A DNA stretch of 64,000 bases from Minisyncoccota bacterium (GTDB lineage: Bacteria; Patescibacteriota; Minisyncoccia; Phycocordibacterales; UBA1550). The notes under the pieces are model-generated. The model did no database searches. It was given only the letters and a program-made list of their open reading frames with translations, and was not told the origin of the DNA. Position numbers and translations under genes: made by a program. The stretch is from positions 57,964-121,963 of the forward strand of contig JBAZWZ010000002.1 in the NCBI GenBank assembly GCA_041660105.1, given 5' to 3'. Of this stretch, positions 54,334 to 61,542 are shown piece after piece (the stretch's first letter is position 1; every line of letters starts with the position of its first letter).

Positions 54334-56577
54334 CTATTTCGCCACTTCCACAGCTTCTTCAAACTTGATTGAGAGGAGCTTTGAGATTGCGTCTGAGCCC
54401 ATCGTCACACCGTAAATGATACCCGCGCGCGACATCGTTTCGCGGTTGTGCGTGATCACAATAAGCTGTGAATACTTTGAGAGTGTTGCGACCATATCGC
54501 CATACTTCTTTGAGTTGGCCTCATCGAGTGCTGCATCTGTCTCATCGAGTACGAGAAATGGTGGTGGGTTCACCTGTGACACTGCGAAGATGAGTGCAAT
54601 AGAGGTGAGTGCACGCTCTCCACCAGAAAGCATCTGAAGTCCTCGAATCTTCTTGTGTGGAAGTGAGATTGCAACCTCAATCCCCTCCTCGCCTTCTTCT
54701 TCCTCAATCTCATCAGGGTTCTCAACGATGTCGGTATCCAAGCGCTTTCTCTTCTTCTCAATAGCAACCTCGAGTGAGGCAGTCCCACCACCAAACATAA
54801 GCGCAAAGAATTCACCGAACTGCTTGTTGATCTTCTTGATACCCTCTTTGAATTGCACCCCAAGGGTCTCCTCGAGCTCACGACAGAGTGCGTGGAGCGA
54901 CTCAGCGCCCTTGGTAAGGTCTTCGAGCTCGCGTGCGAGGAAATTATCGCGCTCAACGGCCTCTTCATACTCACGCATAATCTCCTCTCCCGAACCGCCA
55001 CCCATCATATCCTCGAGACGAATCTTGGTACGCTCAATCTTCTTGCGACGAGCCTCTTGCTCAGCACGAGACTCTGTAAGTGCCATCTCAATATCAATAG
55101 GAGTATTTACATAGTCGAGCACAGAGCGTCCCACGAGGATACCTCCCTCACGAAGTTCTTCACGGAAGGAAACTTCATCGCGGGCAAAGTTCTCAATGTG
55201 CTCACGTACCATACCGAGGCGAAGGGTAAGCTCTTGCTTCTTGGCACGGAACTCAAACGATGCACGCTCTGCTTCTGTCGTCTCTGTGCGCTTGTTCTCC
55301 AGTACTGCTTCAAGCTCATGAACCCTCCTCTCAAAACCACGAATCATTTCTTCGAGGTTGTGTTGTGAATCAAGAAGTGTCTTGTGCTCATTACGCAAAT
55401 CATCGAGTGCCTTAATAACGGCATCATTGTTTACGGGCACACCCTCAGAACCACGAATGTGTTCGAGAAACTTCCCCACTTTCTGGCGGGTAGCACTTAC
55501 TACACCTTTAATATACAAATAGTCCTCGCTTGATTCTGCGTGTCCAAGCTCGTCGTAGAGATTTTGTGCGAGATTCTCAGCCTCTTCTGCGCTCACAACC
55601 TTTTCGTGTTTCTCAAGTGGCGTATTCAAACGGCGCTCCTCGTACTCGATCATTCCCTCGAGGCGACCTATCTTGCGACCGAGGTCATCACGCTCACGAC
55701 GAACAGCGCCCATCTCAGAGCGGACCTTCACGAGCTCGGCAACCTCAGCGCTGTCCTTGGTCTGAACACCGCGCAGACTGTCCGCATGCGCAAGCGCCTC
55801 ATTGGCCACATGGAGTTCTTTCTCAAGTACTTCTTTCTCCTTGTGGAGCTTCTCACGTGTGTGTTTGATGTACGTCTCCTCACGAATCAAATAATCACCA
55901 TAAAGCATCGCGAGCTCATCACGGAGAGTACGTGCCTGCTCCACTTTCTCAACTTGTTTCTTCAAGAATTTAATGTGTGGAGCAATCTCACGACGAAGCG
56001 ACTCTGTCTGACGCATATTCTCCTCTGTCTTCGCGAGTTTCTTCTCGCTCTCTGCAATCTTCCACTGATAAATCTTGAGACCAAGCGCGTCCTCAATCAT
56101 CACACGGCGCTCCTTGGGTGATGTGTTCAAAATACGATCTGCCTCGCCCTGAGAAATGATGTGGTGCCCTGACGCACCAATGTGCACGGACGCAAGGAGC
56201 TCGATAACGTCCTTGAGGCGCACTGAAGATCCATTGATAAAATACTCACTCGATGCATCGCGGTGAATCTCGCGAGAAATAGCAACCTCGTCGTAATCGA
56301 TAGGAAATGTACGGTCTTTGTTATCAAAAGAAATAGTGACACGTGCGCGGTTCTGACGCTCGGCCGACTTGGAGCCGTTGAAGATGAGATCCTCGGTGCG
56401 CTTACCACGCATCGACTTGAGCGACTGCTCTCCGAGTACGAAACGAAGCGCCTCGGCGACGTTGGACTTGCCGGAGCCGTTGGGACCCACGATAGCGGAA
56501 ATAGACGCCCCAAACTCAAGGGTGCTCTTCTTTGCGAAGGATTTAAAACCTGAAATCTCGAGACTTTTTACACGCAT
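54334..56577 (-). CDS. smc: SMC-family chromosome partition ATPase (short, 747 aa)
   Basis: N-terminal Walker A IVGPNGSGKSNV, a long coiled coil, and C-terminal LSGGERALTSIALIFA...FLVLDETDAALD signature/Walker B. scpA and scpB are present elsewhere in the window. Confidence 0.8.
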   Translation of the reverse strand: MRVKSLEISGFKSFAKKSTLEFGASISAIVGPNGSGKSNVAEALRFVLGEQSLKSMRGKRTEDLIFNGSKSAERQNRARVTISFDNKDRTFPIDYDEVAISREIHRDASSEYFINGSSVRLKDVIELLASVHIGASGHHIISQGEADRILNTSPKERRVMIEDALGLKIYQWKIAESEKKLAKTEENMRQTESLRREIAPHIKFLKKQVEKVEQARTLRDELAMLYGDYLIREETYIKHTREKLHKEKEVLEKELHVANEALAHADSLRGVQTKDSAEVAELVKVRSEMGAVRRERDDLGRKIGRLEGMIEYEERRLNTPLEKHEKVVSAEEAENLAQNLYDELGHAESSEDYLYIKGVVSATRQKVGKFLEHIRGSEGVPVNNDAVIKALDDLRNEHKTLLDSQHNLEEMIRGFERRVHELEAVLENKRTETTEAERASFEFRAKKQELTLRLGMVREHIENFARDEVSFREELREGGILVGRSVLDYVNTPIDIEMALTESRAEQEARRKKIERTKIRLEDMMGGGSGEEIMREYEEAVERDNFLARELEDLTKGAESLHALCRELEETLGVQFKEGIKKINKQFGEFFALMFGGGTASLEVAIEKKRKRLDTDIVENPDEIEEEEGEEGIEVAISLPHKKIRGLQMLSGGERALTSIALIFAVSQVNPPPFLVLDETDAALDEANSKKYGDMVATLSKYSQLIVITHNRETMSRAGIIYGVTMGSDAISKLLSIKFEEAVEVAK

Positions 56578-57256: not shown

Positions 57257-57388
57257 TTTTCCCTCCTTGGGAGTTATTAAGATCTGAACGAAGATTAGAA
57301 TAATATTAGAAATATGTCAACAGCAAGAGCGCGAGGCCTTTGGCCTCGCGCTCCGTGTTTCTATTTGCTAATGACTATTGGCTATCAA

Positions 57389-58090
57389 CTATTTCTGCCA
57401 CCCCTTCTTCTTGAGCCCATCCGCGGCGGCATTTTGCTCTGCGTCTTGCTTTGACTTACCCATCCCTGTCCCCACAAGCTCTTTCTCGAGATACACACCC
57501 ACGGTGAAATCCTTATCATGGTCGGGACCCTCTTCCTTAAGCACTTCGTACGATGGTGTGATGCCAACATGCTCTTGTGCCTCTTCTTGAAAAAAACTCT
57601 TTGGGTCACGCCAGAGTTCTTTGTTTACAATTTCATCTGTCTTGCCAAGGAGATGTGTCTTCAAAAATGTATCCGCTGCATCGTATCCCAAGTCGAGATA
57701 AATAGCTCCCACGAGCGCCTCAAATGCGTTCGCGATAATTATTTGTCTCGCCTTTGTGCCCCTGTCCTTCGCCTCGCCTTTTGACATCAGAAGATACTCC
57801 TCCATACCGAGATCAATGCCGAGATTGCCAAGTGTCACTGCGTTTACGAGCGCAGCGCGATAGCTTGTGAGGTCTCCTTCGTTTGACTTTGGATATTTCT
57901 TGTACAAGTAATCAGTTACCGCGAGCTCAACAACGGCGTCACCAAGGAACTCGAGGCGCTCATTGTGATCGAGTCCACGCTCGCGTGTCTCGTTGATATA
58001 CGAGCGATGCGTAAAAGCCTCACGGAGAACCGCCTTGTCGCGAAAGATAACGCCTATGCGTTCTTCGAATGGTAAAAATTTTTCTTTCAT
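57389..58090 (-). CDS. rnc: ribonuclease III
   Basis: ERLEFLGDAV catalytic signature and a C-terminal dsRBD. Confidence 0.85.
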   Translation of the reverse strand: MKEKFLPFEERIGVIFRDKAVLREAFTHRSYINETRERGLDHNERLEFLGDAVVELAVTDYLYKKYPKSNEGDLTSYRAALVNAVTLGNLGIDLGMEEYLLMSKGEAKDRGTKARQIIIANAFEALVGAIYLDLGYDAADTFLKTHLLGKTDEIVNKELWRDPKSFFQEEAQEHVGITPSYEVLKEEGPDHDKDFTVGVYLEKELVGTGMGKSKQDAEQNAAADGLKKKGWQK

Positions 58091-58164
58091 AAAAATTAAG
58101 CTGGTATATCCTGGATTGCTTCGCTGCGCTCGCAAAGACAATCACCGTGATTGTTAGTTAAAGG

Positions 58165-59070
58165 TTATTTCTTGAGTAATATATTTACTGCCTTCGTAAT
58201 CACCGGCAACATATCATCATACATATTGAGGTCAATGATTTCTGCGAGCTTGAACCACTTTGCATCATCGAGTCCACCTTTCTTAAGAAGCTGAATATCC
58301 TGATACGGTGCCTCAGCAAGGAAATAACTCACATGCTTTCGCATCTTACCCTTCTCTGGGTGTGATGCAACGTATTCATTTTCACCGAGAAGCTCACCAA
58401 TAGTTACGGGCAAACCAACTTCTTCCATAACGATACGTGGAAGTGCCTGCTCGTCAGTCTCACCTTCTACATAGTGCCCTTTCGAGAGCGTCCAGTGACC
58501 AAATATGTCATGCACAAGTCCGAGATAGACATCCTGACCATCACGCGCGTAAATCACCGCACCGCCAAGCTTGTCGAGAGGAAGAGTCTTTGGGTCCACC
58601 GGAGCGTGAGGAACTTTCTTCTTGCTCGTCTCATCTTTACCAGGCTCACCAAGCTCCTTATACACCGCGCCGAGTACGCCGTTGATAAACTTACCACTTG
58701 TCTCACCGCCGTATGTCTTCGCAAGCTCGATAGCTTCATTGATAGCCACCTTCGCCGGCACTTGAGTACGGTCTTCGAAAAGTAATTCGTAAAGTCCGAT
58801 GCGGAGGATATTGCGGTCTACAAGTGCAATCTTGGCAATAGGCCAATCTGGGGCAGCCTTTACAATAATGTCGTCAAGCGTAGTCTTCTTGTTGAGGATA
58901 CCCAAAAGAAGCTTTCGCATAAACGAGATGTCATTCACCCCAGGGGCAAACTCCTCTGCGTTGCGTACGAGAGCCTGCTCAATCTCAAGATCGGTAAGTG
59001 CTCCACCGCGGAAATCCCACTCGTAGAGAACCTGCATAACGATACTTCTTGAAAGGTGTCTGTTTGCCAT
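58165..59070 (-). CDS. NusB-like N-terminal domain fused to a C-terminal NUDIX hydrolase domain
   Basis: N-terminal about 145 aa (RSIVMQVLYEWDF...FINGVLGAVYKEL) is NusB-like. The C-terminus carries the Nudix box GHWTLSKGHYVEGETDEQALPRIVMEEVGL. Confidence 0.75.
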   Translation of the reverse strand: MANRHLSRSIVMQVLYEWDFRGGALTDLEIEQALVRNAEEFAPGVNDISFMRKLLLGILNKKTTLDDIIVKAAPDWPIAKIALVDRNILRIGLYELLFEDRTQVPAKVAINEAIELAKTYGGETSGKFINGVLGAVYKELGEPGKDETSKKKVPHAPVDPKTLPLDKLGGAVIYARDGQDVYLGLVHDIFGHWTLSKGHYVEGETDEQALPRIVMEEVGLPVTIGELLGENEYVASHPEKGKMRKHVSYFLAEAPYQDIQLLKKGGLDDAKWFKLAEIIDLNMYDDMLPVITKAVNILLKK

Positions 59071-59156: not shown

Positions 59157-59375
59157 TTATTTCTTCTTTGCTGCGACACGCTTCTCTGTCTTCGCAATAG
59201 TTTTTACCAATTTGAGGACTGCCTTACCACGATACGTACCGCAAGCGGCACAAACCTGATGGCGAAGGTGAAGAGCCTCGCACTTCACGCACTTTGAAAG
59301 GCGTGCGCCGTCAAGAGCGTGATGTGAACGGCGATTTGCCGTGTGTGCACGTGTGTGTCTCATTCGTACTACCAT
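59157..59375 (-). CDS. rpmF: 50S ribosomal protein L32
   Basis: MVVRMRHTRAHTANRRSHHAL...CxxC...CxxCG is the L32 zinc ribbon. Confidence 0.85.
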   Translation of the reverse strand: MVVRMRHTRAHTANRRSHHALDGARLSKCVKCEALHLRHQVCAACGTYRGKAVLKLVKTIAKTEKRVAAKKK

Positions 59376-59449
59376 AGTAGAGATACTCTAGCAAATCCCC
59401 CAGAAAAAATCAAGGGGCTGGTATTTCTACCAGCCCCTTTTGGGTTTTT

Positions 59450-59767
59450 CTACAGAATTCTTCGAAGCATACGGGTGTTATAAAGCTGGAAACGCCTGCC
59501 TTCAACACTGAGAACACCTTCCCTGATTGCCACTGCTATCACCTCATCCTCAATAAAACCAAGCCTGACTGCGGGGGCTCCACCATCTTCTGAGGGATGA
59601 TAGAACAGTGTGACACTGAAACCCTTGTCCTCCTTAAGGAAATGGAGGGTCTGATTCTTGTCCTCCACATCGACGAGGGCCTCCTTGATGCCATACCCCG
59701 GGTGCGCGGTTGCTGGAGCAGTGTTTGCCCTGGACACAGAGCGAAAACGTTCACTTTTATTCAACAT
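59450..59767 (-). CDS. hypothetical protein (105 aa) upstream of rpmF
   Basis: Position is analogous to the DUF177/YceD genes that often precede rpmF, but the sequence is not clearly recognisable. Confidence 0.35.
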   Translation of the reverse strand: MLNKSERFRSVSRANTAPATAHPGYGIKEALVDVEDKNQTLHFLKEDKGFSVTLFYHPSEDGGAPAVRLGFIEDEVIAVAIREGVLSVEGRRFQLYNTRMLRRIL

Positions 59768-59821: not shown

Positions 59822-59953
59822 TTACACAAGACCCTTCAGAAAACTTTTGCGGTGATGCTTGGTGATGCCATTCTTTTTTATTGCTTCGTAGTGTGCGCGG
59901 GTACCGTAGCCTTTGTGTTTTTCAAAACCGTACGCAGGAAACTTTTTTGCAAA
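59822..59953 (-). pseudogene. duplicated 3'-terminal fragment of rnhB (about 42 codons plus stop)
   Basis: The nucleotide sequence is about 85% identical to 60942-61071. It translates to ...[43 protein letters not shown] against rnhB ...[44 protein letters not shown]. Confidence 0.65.
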
Positions 59954-60308
59954 TATGGAAAAGAAAAAGCGCCGTACCAAAAGGTCGTGCGCTCTTGTAT
60001 TTGATGCAGTTACTTGGGAATGTACGTAATTGTTACGTACATCGTGGCGTCGCTCGAAATTGAAGTGGCCACGGAAATGCATTCCTTAACATTCTCTGAA
60101 AGAAACTTTTCCACACCTTTCTCCATTTCATCAAATCTTCCCACAGTATGGCGTGGTTGAGTGAGACAGAACGAAAGCACTTTGCACTTAGGCATCACAT
60201 ACTCCTTAGTTGTGTATGTTCACGGCGACGTGCCAGTGACTCATATGAATTAACAGTAGCATTTTAGTATAATTTTGTCAAGTGCTACAAGACTTTTGCT
60301 ACAGAACT

Positions 60309-60929
60309 TTAAAAATTGCGCCCACAATTTTTTCTTGCTATCAAAACCTCAGCATTATTCACCATAGGAGTCCCGTCCGTACGATTTCGCAATGCACGGG
60401 AGTCCATCTTGTCATAGGCAATAATCTCCCAGTCATTATATATTTCTTTTAGTTCATTTGGTTTGGGATAAAAATTTTTTGTTGATGGATTCTCATTATA
60501 AAAATCTCCCTCTGCCGTAAGAACCGATACGACGTTGAAACCACCAGCCCTTGTTTTTTCTTTCATCTGTTCTATGACTTTTCTTGCAGCAAAATCAGTG
60601 ATGTGCTGAAAAACATAAGAAACTACAATAACATCATAACTCTGGATAACACCAATTTCGACTATGTCTGCAATATGTGAACGAACAACCAAGTTTCTCT
60701 TTTTAGCCTCTTTTTTAAACTTCTCAACTCCAACCCTAGAAAGATCAATGAGTGTAACTTGAAATCCAGCGTCTGCAAGAAAAAGTGCATTTCTCCCTTC
60801 TCCTCCACCTATGTCCAATACTTCGCCACTCTTAATTAACTCTGTAATTTTTTTTACAGCTTGCTGTGGTTTCCCTCCCCTAAAATCAATATTTGGGGTC
60901 GCATAAATTTCATCATATTTATTACTCAT
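60309..60929 (-). CDS. SAM-dependent methyltransferase, TehB-like
   Basis: VLDIGGGEGRNALFLADAGFQVTLIDLS (motif I) and overall similarity to tellurite methyltransferase TehB. It lies between the two rnhB 3' copies. Confidence 0.75.
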   Translation of the reverse strand: MSNKYDEIYATPNIDFRGGKPQQAVKKITELIKSGEVLDIGGGEGRNALFLADAGFQVTLIDLSRVGVEKFKKEAKKRNLVVRSHIADIVEIGVIQSYDVIVVSYVFQHITDFAARKVIEQMKEKTRAGGFNVVSVLTAEGDFYNENPSTKNFYPKPNELKEIYNDWEIIAYDKMDSRALRNRTDGTPMVNNAEVLIARKNCGRNF

Positions 60930-60933
60930 CTGT

Positions 60934-61542
60934 TTATTCTACCACACCCTTCAAAAAACTTTTCCTGTGATGCTTGGTTATGCCGTTCTTTTTGATAGCT
61001 TCGTAGTGCGCTCGGGTGCCGTAACCTTTGTGCTTTTCAAAACCGTGCTCAGGGAACTTTTTTGCAAGAAGTGTCATACGAGCATCGCGCGCGACTTTTG
61101 CCACTATTGAAGCAAGGGCAATAGCAAGCTCCTTTTCGTCGCCCTTTATAATAGTTTCTTGATTCTTGTAATGCTCTGGTGCATAGAGCGAACCATCAAG
61201 AAGAACTTTTGCCTCATCGACATTGTGCTCGATTGCTTCGAGTGAAGCAATCATCGCCGTGCGAATAGCAGACGAAAGTCCCCTTTTATCAATCACGCTC
61301 GGCGCAACAAAAGAAACTGCGCACGAGAGATATCCGAGAGACTCAGCTTCTTTGATTTTGAGTAACCATTCTTCCCTCTTTTTGGGGGTGAGTTTTTTTG
61401 AGTCTTTTATAATAGGAAAAAGTTTTTCAACCTTCTTTTTGTGTTCAGCATAAATACACACAGCGCCGACAGCGACCGGCCCAGCAAGAGGTCCACGACC
61501 AACCTCATCGACACCAATTATGTATTTATACTTCTTCTTCAT
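60934..61542 (-). CDS. rnhB: ribonuclease HII
   Basis: IIGVDEVGRGPLAGPVAVGAV catalytic DEDD motif region, 202 aa. Confidence 0.9.
   Translation of the reverse strand: MKKKYKYIIGVDEVGRGPLAGPVAVGAVCIYAEHKKKVEKLFPIIKDSKKLTPKKREEWLLKIKEAESLGYLSCAVSFVAPSVIDKRGLSSAIRTAMIASLEAIEHNVDEAKVLLDGSLYAPEHYKNQETIIKGDEKELAIALASIVAKVARDARMTLLAKKFPEHGFEKHKGYGTRAHYEAIKKNGITKHHRKSFLKGVVE

Follow-up and report, generated by a model that had tools for sequence, protein, structure and literature searches.

On the minus strand of a 64,000-nucleotide stretch of contig JBAZWZ010000002.1 from a Minisyncoccota bacterium (assembly GCA_041660105.1; this whole stretch is referred to as the window below), we analyzed a gene that encodes the transcription antitermination factor NusB and a Nudix domain within one protein of 301 amino acids (aa). 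The fusion of these two domains is a conserved architecture in hundreds of uncultivated Parcubacteria species and not an assembly error. Regarding its function, we assign a probability of roughly one half to the reading that the NusB of this lineage carries a tethered nucleoside-polyphosphate-binding Nudix module that is weakly catalytic or non-catalytic, a proposal drawn from sequence comparison.

The matches to both domain families are far beyond chance level. Residues 7-138 matched the Pfam NusB family (PF01029) with an E-value of 1.3e-33 and 116.6 bits against a gathering cut-off of 23.1, residues 171-286 matched Pfam NUDIX (PF00293) with an E-value of 2.6e-14 and 53.8 bits (gathering cut-off 21.1), and the nusB equivalog model of NCBIfam (TIGR01951) was exceeded as well (125.5 bits, cut-off 88.35). 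An earlier note on this DNA had reported a single 301-aa open reading frame (ORF) with NusB-like and Nudix parts and had called a NusB fusion unusual. Both statements agree with our data, since the frame is uninterrupted, the peptide quoted in the note is present along with both domains, and for NusB proper this single-frame arrangement with its lineage-wide conservation is indeed out of the ordinary.

Conservation of the fusion in Parcubacteria

Both Pfam domains were present in all 120 of the best homologue protein clusters, which come from NCBI, JGI, ENA and Logan assemblies and exhibit 65-96% identity. Apart from one 251-aa member, these proteins span 277-312 aa. Their organisms include Candidatus Yonathbacteria, Pacebacteria and Parcubacteria, and where public names are given for the fused proteins, these read only "transcription antitermination factor NusB". 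A search of related genomes for the same fusion, one of the checks that the earlier note had suggested, identified a relative in at least 579 genomes when one genome per GTDB species was scanned. For each of the 80 best related loci, over which all locus-level counts (synteny and frame) were taken, a single tblastn segment covered residues 1 to approximately 301; the records are titled as Yonath-, Nomura-, Kaiser- and Adlerbacteria, Paceibacterota and Parcubacteria. When 1.84 billion cluster representatives were searched exhaustively with HMMER, dozens of further full-length fusions with 33-58% identity emerged as 50%-cluster representatives. The family statistics reported below refer to 141 fused proteins with 30-100% identity.

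When the window gene was compared codon by codon with seven related loci, the proportions of non-synonymous differences (pN) were 0.04-0.13 for the NusB half, 0.07-0.36 for the linker and 0.10-0.22 for the Nudix half, while the synonymous differences (pS) were saturated at 0.54-1.0, mostly 0.7-0.9. With the synonymous rate (dS) saturated in most pairs, the meaningful comparison is that of pN with pS and not dN/dS. Since pN is far below pS in all three parts, the NusB half, the linker and the Nudix half are all translated and under purifying selection.

These data also bear on the possibility that separate nusB and nudix genes were wrongly joined by an assembly or frameshift artefact, which the earlier note had suspected in the linker. 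One related contig (L081) does have NusB and Nudix called as two genes, but it deviates from the other loci by just one in-frame TAA at a conserved Tyr codon. In addition, the reading frame is continuous in all 80 of the independent species-level genomes compared and in over 120 protein clusters that stem from various projects, and the linker codons themselves are under purifying selection. The comparative data therefore exclude the suspected artefact for practical purposes, and we regard its probability as negligible.

Among the Nudix-only representatives examined, no true split pair of nusB and nudix genes of the "Rosetta stone" type was confirmed. Two candidates were rejected. In the first (P0256, from L081), the in-frame TAA takes the place of the Tyr conserved in GAVYKELGEP on a contig of 2.4 kb (GCA_013565675.1, JACCDV010735530.1, positions 542-1459) and yields gene calls for a NusB of 133 aa and a Nudix protein of 141 aa; this TAA could be a sequencing error, a pseudogene mutation or a rare natural split. 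The second (P0237, from L082) is a Nudix-only protein cut by the contig end. A third Nudix-only protein from the representative library (P0260, 142 aa) combines a canonical MutT-like N-terminal half (GQWVAPGGRIEFGETPERCIVREIKEELGL) with a C-terminal half near-identical to the fusion family (GENEYVASDP...GGLDDARWF), and would be either a chimeric assembly or a recombinant Nudix protein.

The NusB half

In the AlphaFold2 model the helices of the NusB half lie within residues 4-140 and form the all-helical NusB fold. According to Stagno et al. (PMC3177189), NusB binds boxA RNA from its N-terminus along alpha7, the C-terminal helix; F122 of NusB stacks on U8 of boxA, E81 bridges U8 and H15 of NusE, and the E. 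coli variant EcNusB-F122D is defective. The equivalents of both residues in E. coli and Aquifex (Ec/Aa) NusB are invariant, namely F128 for F122 (141/141 proteins of the fusion family) and D85 for E81, the latter being a conservative Glu-to-Asp change with Asp also found in T. maritima NusB. Because TIGR01951 scored above its cut-off, stand-alone relatives occupy the same slot between the genes for ribosomal protein L32 and RNase III (rnc), and F128 and D85 are invariant, the NusB half is, as judged from these sequence features, the organism's own NusB, i.e. the boxA-RNA/S10-binding subunit of the rRNA antitermination complex.

Compared to canonical NusB (TIGR01951/PF01029, with structures from E. 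coli, T. maritima, Aquifex and M. tuberculosis), the fusion has about 160 extra C-terminal residues. While canonical NusB stops soon after helix alpha7, the fusion continues with the linker and the Nudix domain. The nearest architectural precedent is RsmB/Fmu/Sun, the 16S rRNA m5C967 methyltransferase, in which a NusB-like domain is combined with an rRNA methyltransferase. This is an architectural analogy only, since the C-terminal partner in the fusion is a Nudix fold and not a Rossmann methyltransferase; RsmB models reached 19-60 bits against cut-offs of 269-540, and no Pfam methyltransferase domain was found in the fusion.

Fold and nearest relatives of the Nudix half

In addition to its Pfam score, the Nudix half exhibits the Nudix alpha/beta/alpha fold in the predicted structure. 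The top Foldseek matches were the Aquifex hydrolase of diadenosine tetraphosphate (Ap4A) with a template-modelling (TM) score of 0.85 and Ndx1 (TM 0.83), followed by CT771, the C. elegans and human Ap4A hydrolases, M. smegmatis MutT1 and M. tuberculosis Rv2985. NrtR (ranks 7-9), AraR, NadQ and mL46 were also among the structural neighbours. The segment GHWTLSKGH aligned with hHWTPPKGH of NUDT2 and the C. elegans Ap4A hydrolase as well as with kHWGFPKGH of CT771. Identity to the Ap4A/ApnA hydrolases (Aquifex aq_158, the Ap6A hydrolase Ndx1 of Thermus, NUDT2, the C. elegans enzyme, CT771 and Rv2985) is only 22-30%, and the fusion differs from them in having Ile in place of NUDT2 E58 and in being joined to NusB.

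No NCBIfam hydrolase model reached its cut-off on the Nudix half, and the curated RppH, MutT and NudC models failed, with the RppH models NF001936, NF001937, NF001934 and NF001935 giving 11.6-17.3 bits against cut-offs of 118-259. The Nudix half nevertheless resembles RppH in its fold, in a similar box context and in 40% identity over 53 residues to the RppH sequence used, and an RNA-linked role as for RppH is plausible. In contrast to the strongly basic RppH (isoelectric point, pI, of about 10), the Nudix domain of the window protein is acidic (pI ~5.3, net charge -6), as is the family as a whole (median pI 5.3, net charge -5). The acidic character therefore counts against extensive binding of the RNA backbone, but not against recognition of a terminal nucleotide or a small ligand. 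Taken by sequence and predicted fold, the Nudix half should best be described as Ap4A-hydrolase-like and not be classed as a hydrolase.

Catalytic residues and the conserved pocket

The Nudix box, which had been called complete in the earlier note, reads G-x5-E-x7-R-I-V-x-E-E-x-G-L against the consensus GX5EX7REUXEEXGU and thus has Ile (I213, box position 16) at the first Glu of REUXEE. I213 aligned with what we take to be E53 of E. coli RppH and with E58 of NUDT2, for which the deposited E58A entry (4ijx) has Ala at the same column. The E58A mutant of NUDT2 dephosphorylated neither ppp-RNA nor pppGpA (PMC8616924), and the E53A mutant of RppH has no catalytic activity (PMC6061791).

Closer examination of the family revealed that the loss is widespread. 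Among 121 close relatives, position 16 is occupied by Ile in 73, Glu in 37, Val in six, Lys in four and Ala in one, while over all 141 fused proteins the corresponding numbers are Glu 37, Lys 30, Val 25, Ile 19, Ala 11 and Gly nine. Box positions 7 and 15 are often lost as well, even in well-aligned sequences with 60-65% identity (examples are EGIKDELG, QGIKDEMG, DKLKEELG and KVIKDEIS). All of E7, R15, E16, E19 and E20 are kept in only 32/141 proteins; in 50, the window protein among them, E16 alone is missing, and in another 54 E16 is missing together with at least one further catalytic residue. No column in the 141 proteins turns acidic to compensate where position 16 is not Glu.

The residues outside the box follow a different pattern, with D188 present in 132 of the 141 proteins, W193 in 136, K197 in 136, Y233 in 127, K245 in 123, Y249 in 130, W272 in 134 and Y284 in 134. 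Pocket residues are about 90-96% conserved, compared to 26-87% for box positions 16, 7, 15, 19 and 20. The Nudix half of the window protein retains the HWTxxKG, G-x-NEY, K, Y and W pocket residues and the E-E pair of box positions 19 and 20, a pair found in about 85% of the fused proteins. Across the family the catalytic signature is mosaic, and efficient hydrolysis by the window protein is doubtful. Taken together, strong purifying selection, a decayed box and a conserved pocket argue for a conserved function other than canonical catalysis.

Linker and domain arrangement

The full-length structure prediction that the earlier note had proposed as a check was obtained with AlphaFold2 from a 59-sequence alignment. 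It gave a mean predicted local distance difference test (pLDDT) score of 83.4 and a predicted TM score (pTM) of 0.48, with the strands and helices of the Nudix half within residues 165-299 and pLDDT below 50 for residues 142-157. According to this model, the protein is composed of two well-defined domains without confident mutual orientation that are joined by a disordered linker. The linker departs directly from alpha7, and the Nudix domain would therefore be tethered beside the boxA site. No solved chain found in structure searches spans both a NusB and a Nudix half.

Across the family the linker has a median length of 24 residues (range 8-43). Its proximal motif GEPGKDE-SKKK is about 70-77% conserved over the 141 proteins, while the distal spacer is variable in length. 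The motif, located at 58615-58650 (residues 141-152) and predicted to be disordered, is missing from the stand-alone NusB relatives and hence specific to the fusion; it may represent a short linear interaction motif.

The lack of confident packing between the domains, with the low pTM and the disordered linker, would also be expected if the fusion were functionally uncoupled, i.e. if the Nudix half were a housekeeping pyrophosphatase of dinucleoside polyphosphates (NpnN) or nucleoside triphosphates (NTP), with the two halves working independently, benefiting from co-expression only and being hard to un-fuse. Small genomes of the candidate phyla radiation (CPR) often have compact gene arrangements, which fits this explanation as well. 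Nevertheless we consider it improbable, since no true split forms were found and the apparent ones were explained by contig ends or a nonsense codon within the frame, no nudix gene adjoins the nearest stand-alone NusB genes, the GEPGKDE-SKKK motif is conserved and under purifying selection, and a housekeeping hydrolase would be expected to retain its catalytic box.

Proposed function of the fused protein

Under the reading that we favor, in which the Nudix half is a tethered nucleoside-polyphosphate-binding module, the NusB half would act as usual by binding S10 and the boxA of the rRNA leader as it is transcribed. Selection on the Nudix half would be for binding a nucleoside-polyphosphate group beside boxA, with hydrolysis slow at most, and the E-E pair could hold a metal in the retained pocket. 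Candidates for the bound group would be a free nucleotide of the NpnN/NTP type or the 5'-triphosphate or nucleoside-tetraphosphate (Np4)-capped end of the nascent leader, and by binding it the module would anchor or modulate the complex for antitermination and rRNA maturation. In this case the fused domain would serve as an accessory subunit with an enzyme fold, built into NusB, and not as an efficient pyrophosphatase. Nucleotide binding is proposed because it is the most economical function given the retained pocket and the partly degenerate catalytic signature.

There are precedents for such a use of the fold. In non-catalytic Nudix modules, including the effector domains of NrtR, AraR and NadQ, the NUDT9H domain of TRPM2 and the mitoribosomal protein mL46, the fold is kept and the box degenerate, with the module serving in ligand binding or in a structural role within a ribonucleoprotein; TRPM2 NUDT9H binds ADP-ribose and is inactive through Nudix-box substitutions (PMC4974056). 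The window protein differs from NrtR and mL46 in a much less degenerate box, in which 8/9 positions match, and from the NrtR-type and TRPM2 modules in its partner, which is an RNA-binding antitermination factor and not a winged helix-turn-helix domain or an ion channel. An enzyme fold as part of the antitermination machinery is also represented by SuhB, a protein of the inositol monophosphatase family fold that belongs to the E. coli rRNA transcription antitermination complex (rrnTAC) as an integral subunit and helps NusB/E to integrate (PMC6614801, PMC6614797). SuhB is a conceptual analogue only, as its fold is unrelated and it is a separate polypeptide, and contacts of the Nudix half with NusA, RNA polymerase (RNAP) or the leader RNA would be hypothetical.

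Several observations weigh against a weakly catalytic or non-catalytic binding module. Close relatives invariably have E216 and E217 (box positions 19 and 20), and the window protein also retains E7 and R15, so that a two-metal site may survive there. The catalytic base varies among Nudix enzymes (PMC4974056). About 23% of the family have a fully canonical box, and some members are probably active. The box columns of representatives with 30-40% identity are possibly misaligned in part, although the pattern of loss holds at 60% identity and above. Finally, the 64-kb window contains no Rfam family at gathering threshold, no tRNA or tmRNA gene and no rRNA leader or boxA.

Some of the same features would be accounted for by an active RNA 5'-end enzyme that is delivered by NusB and removes pyrophosphate or an Np4 cap from the nascent rRNA leader. 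This would license 5'-monophosphate-dependent nucleases and allow cooperation with the co-transcribed RNase III in leader removal, an explanation close to the earlier note, in which the fusion was proposed to link antitermination with the hydrolysis of nucleotides or RNA caps. The similarity of the Nudix half to Ap4A/Ap6A hydrolases, the ability of the Ap4A hydrolase NUDT2 and the related RppH to dephosphorylate ppp-RNA (PMC8616924), the tether starting at the boxA-binding helix, the presence of rnc in the conserved operon, the invariance of the E-E pair in close relatives, the canonical box of 32/141 members and the precedent of RsmB, in which a NusB fold targets an rRNA enzyme, are all in line with it. 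On the other hand, the window protein has Ile at position 16, a position held by Glu in only 26% of the fused proteins, substitution at this site inactivates NUDT2 and RppH, and many members have lost box positions 7 and 15 too; unlike the basic RppH, the domain is acidic, and the RppH models remained far below their cut-offs. We therefore judge an active 5'-end enzyme to be possible but somewhat unlikely. Of the coupling suggested in the earlier note, the link between NusB and a nucleotide or an RNA 5' end is still plausible, whereas efficient hydrolysis is doubtful given I213 and the mosaic family signature.

More tentatively, and in our estimation rather unlikely in this specific form, the Nudix half could be a pseudo- or slow enzyme that senses a nucleoside polyphosphate (an alarmone of the Ap4A type, an NTP, or the 5'-triphosphate or Np4 end of the leader) near boxA and couples the transcription and maturation of rRNA to the state of the 5' end or to nucleotide or stress status. 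If true, this would constitute a regulatory input to the Nus machinery without a described counterpart in model bacteria.

Genomic neighbourhood and origin of the fusion

The fusion gene is embedded in a conserved gene order (features listed in Table 1). L32 is encoded upstream on the same strand in 77/80 related loci with a median gap of 141 bp, rnc follows directly downstream in 74/80 (median gap 60 bp), and smc lies after rnc in 67/80. In the window, rnc is followed on the same strand by a small membrane-like ORF and then smc.

Table 1. Features of the nusB::nudix gene and its surroundings in the window
Feature	Position	Strand	Basis and remarks
nusB::nudix ORF, complete	58165..59070	minus	ORF list; 301 aa plus stop, ATG start; Pfam NusB and NUDIX
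NusB domain, residues 1-140, seven-helix bundle	58651..59070	minus	includes F128 and D85
Linker, residues 141-166, GEPGKDETSKKKVPHAPVDPKTLPLD	58573..58650	minus	translation; low pLDDT; column conservation; pN 0.07-0.08 compared to pS 0.5-0.7
Nudix-fold domain, residues 167-301, Ap4A/Ap6A-hydrolase type	58168..58572	minus	Pfam NUDIX; fold and sequence similarity
Nudix box, residues 198-220, GHYVEGETDEQALPRIVMEEVGL	58411..58479	minus	23 residues; 8/9 specified consensus positions match
Ile213 codon, box position 16, in place of canonical Glu	58432..58434	minus	alignments with NUDT2 and RppH
rpmF (ribosomal protein L32), upstream gene	59157..59375	minus	Pfam PF01783
rnc (RNase III), downstream gene	57389..58141	minus	Pfam Ribonuclease_3 and dsrm
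Terminator-like hairpin upstream of rpmF	59412..59439	minus	consensus scan only
GC-rich hairpin just past the rnc stop	57327..57353		consensus scan; T-run scored on the plus strand only, minus-strand function inferred

The rnc ORF in the ORF list begins with TTG; an ATG (MKEKFLPFEE...) lies 17 codons further downstream, at ~58090. Since the RNase III proteins of the stand-alone-NusB relatives align only from residue 18-19 onward, this internal Met is probably the true start, which would leave a gap of about 74 bp after nusB::nudix. The promoter scan detected no convincing sigma-70 promoter directly upstream of nusB::nudix, with hit counts not above the shuffled expectation, and it is plausible that the two hairpins in Table 1 bound a transcription unit composed of rpmF, nusB::nudix and rnc.

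The nearest stand-alone NusB proteins are 140-149 aa long and about 50-55% identical to the N-terminal half of the fusion. In these sister lineages (L083-L085) the gene order is L32-NusB-rnc, and no nudix gene was found adjacent to the stand-alone nusB, which has rnc downstream instead. With stand-alone NusB in the same slot and rnc next to it, the ancestral order was therefore L32-NusB-RNase III, with the Nudix module added to the NusB C-terminus. No evidence for a merger of two pre-existing neighbour genes was found in the stand-alone loci examined, and a search with the domain hidden Markov models against all six-frame ORFs of the 64-kb window revealed no other NusB- or Nudix-like ORF.

Several further features of the region were noted. 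A stretch of 64 kb without known RNA genes is long for a small genome. Upstream of the fusion gene, the 3' end of rnhB, which encodes RNase HII (60934-61542, minus strand), is duplicated as a 127-nt direct repeat whose copies (59826-59952 and 60941-61067) are 87% identical and lie 1115 bp apart. An ORF for a TehB-like S-adenosylmethionine-dependent methyltransferase (60309-60929; Pfam PF03848, E-value 6.7e-26) lies between the repeat copies, and a remnant ORF (59822-60082) retains the RNase HII C-terminus. The distance of rnhB upstream of nusB::nudix is 1864 bp in the window compared to approximately 813 bp in relatives, and the methyltransferase was present in 0/80 syntenic loci. This looks like an insertion of about 1.1 kb by which the 3' end of rnhB was restored. 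A 105-aa ORF (59450-59767, minus strand) between the remnant of rnhB and rpmF precedes the upstream hairpin; it matched no Pfam family and gave no tblastn match in the 80 syntenic loci. The SMC homologue (54334-56577, minus strand) consists of 747 aa, with the Pfam SMC_N head model split across residues 3-732. Bacterial SMC proteins typically comprise about 1100-1200 aa, and the homologue encoded in the window would therefore have a much shorter coiled coil.

Significance

No description of a NusB-Nudix fusion was found in the searchable full-text literature, and nothing relevant on NusB in the CPR or on Nudix proteins in Patescibacteria either. The sequences themselves are already public under the label NusB; the architecture is solid and conserved, resides in a core transcription factor and was not described in the literature searched. 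The NusB-only annotation renders the Nudix half invisible to name-based surveys, and because of its degenerate box, the Nudix half should not be auto-annotated as a hydrolase.

NusB is a core and nearly universal part of the bacterial rRNA antitermination/RNA-chaperone complex, yet almost all work on it has dealt with a stand-alone protein of 140 residues. Hundreds of species in an uncultivated, genome-reduced lineage have fixed an enzyme-derived second domain next to its boxA-binding helix. Should this Nudix domain prove to bind or process a nucleotide or the transcript 5' end, it would represent a new input into rRNA synthesis as well as a tractable recombinant handle on the control of transcription in the CPR.

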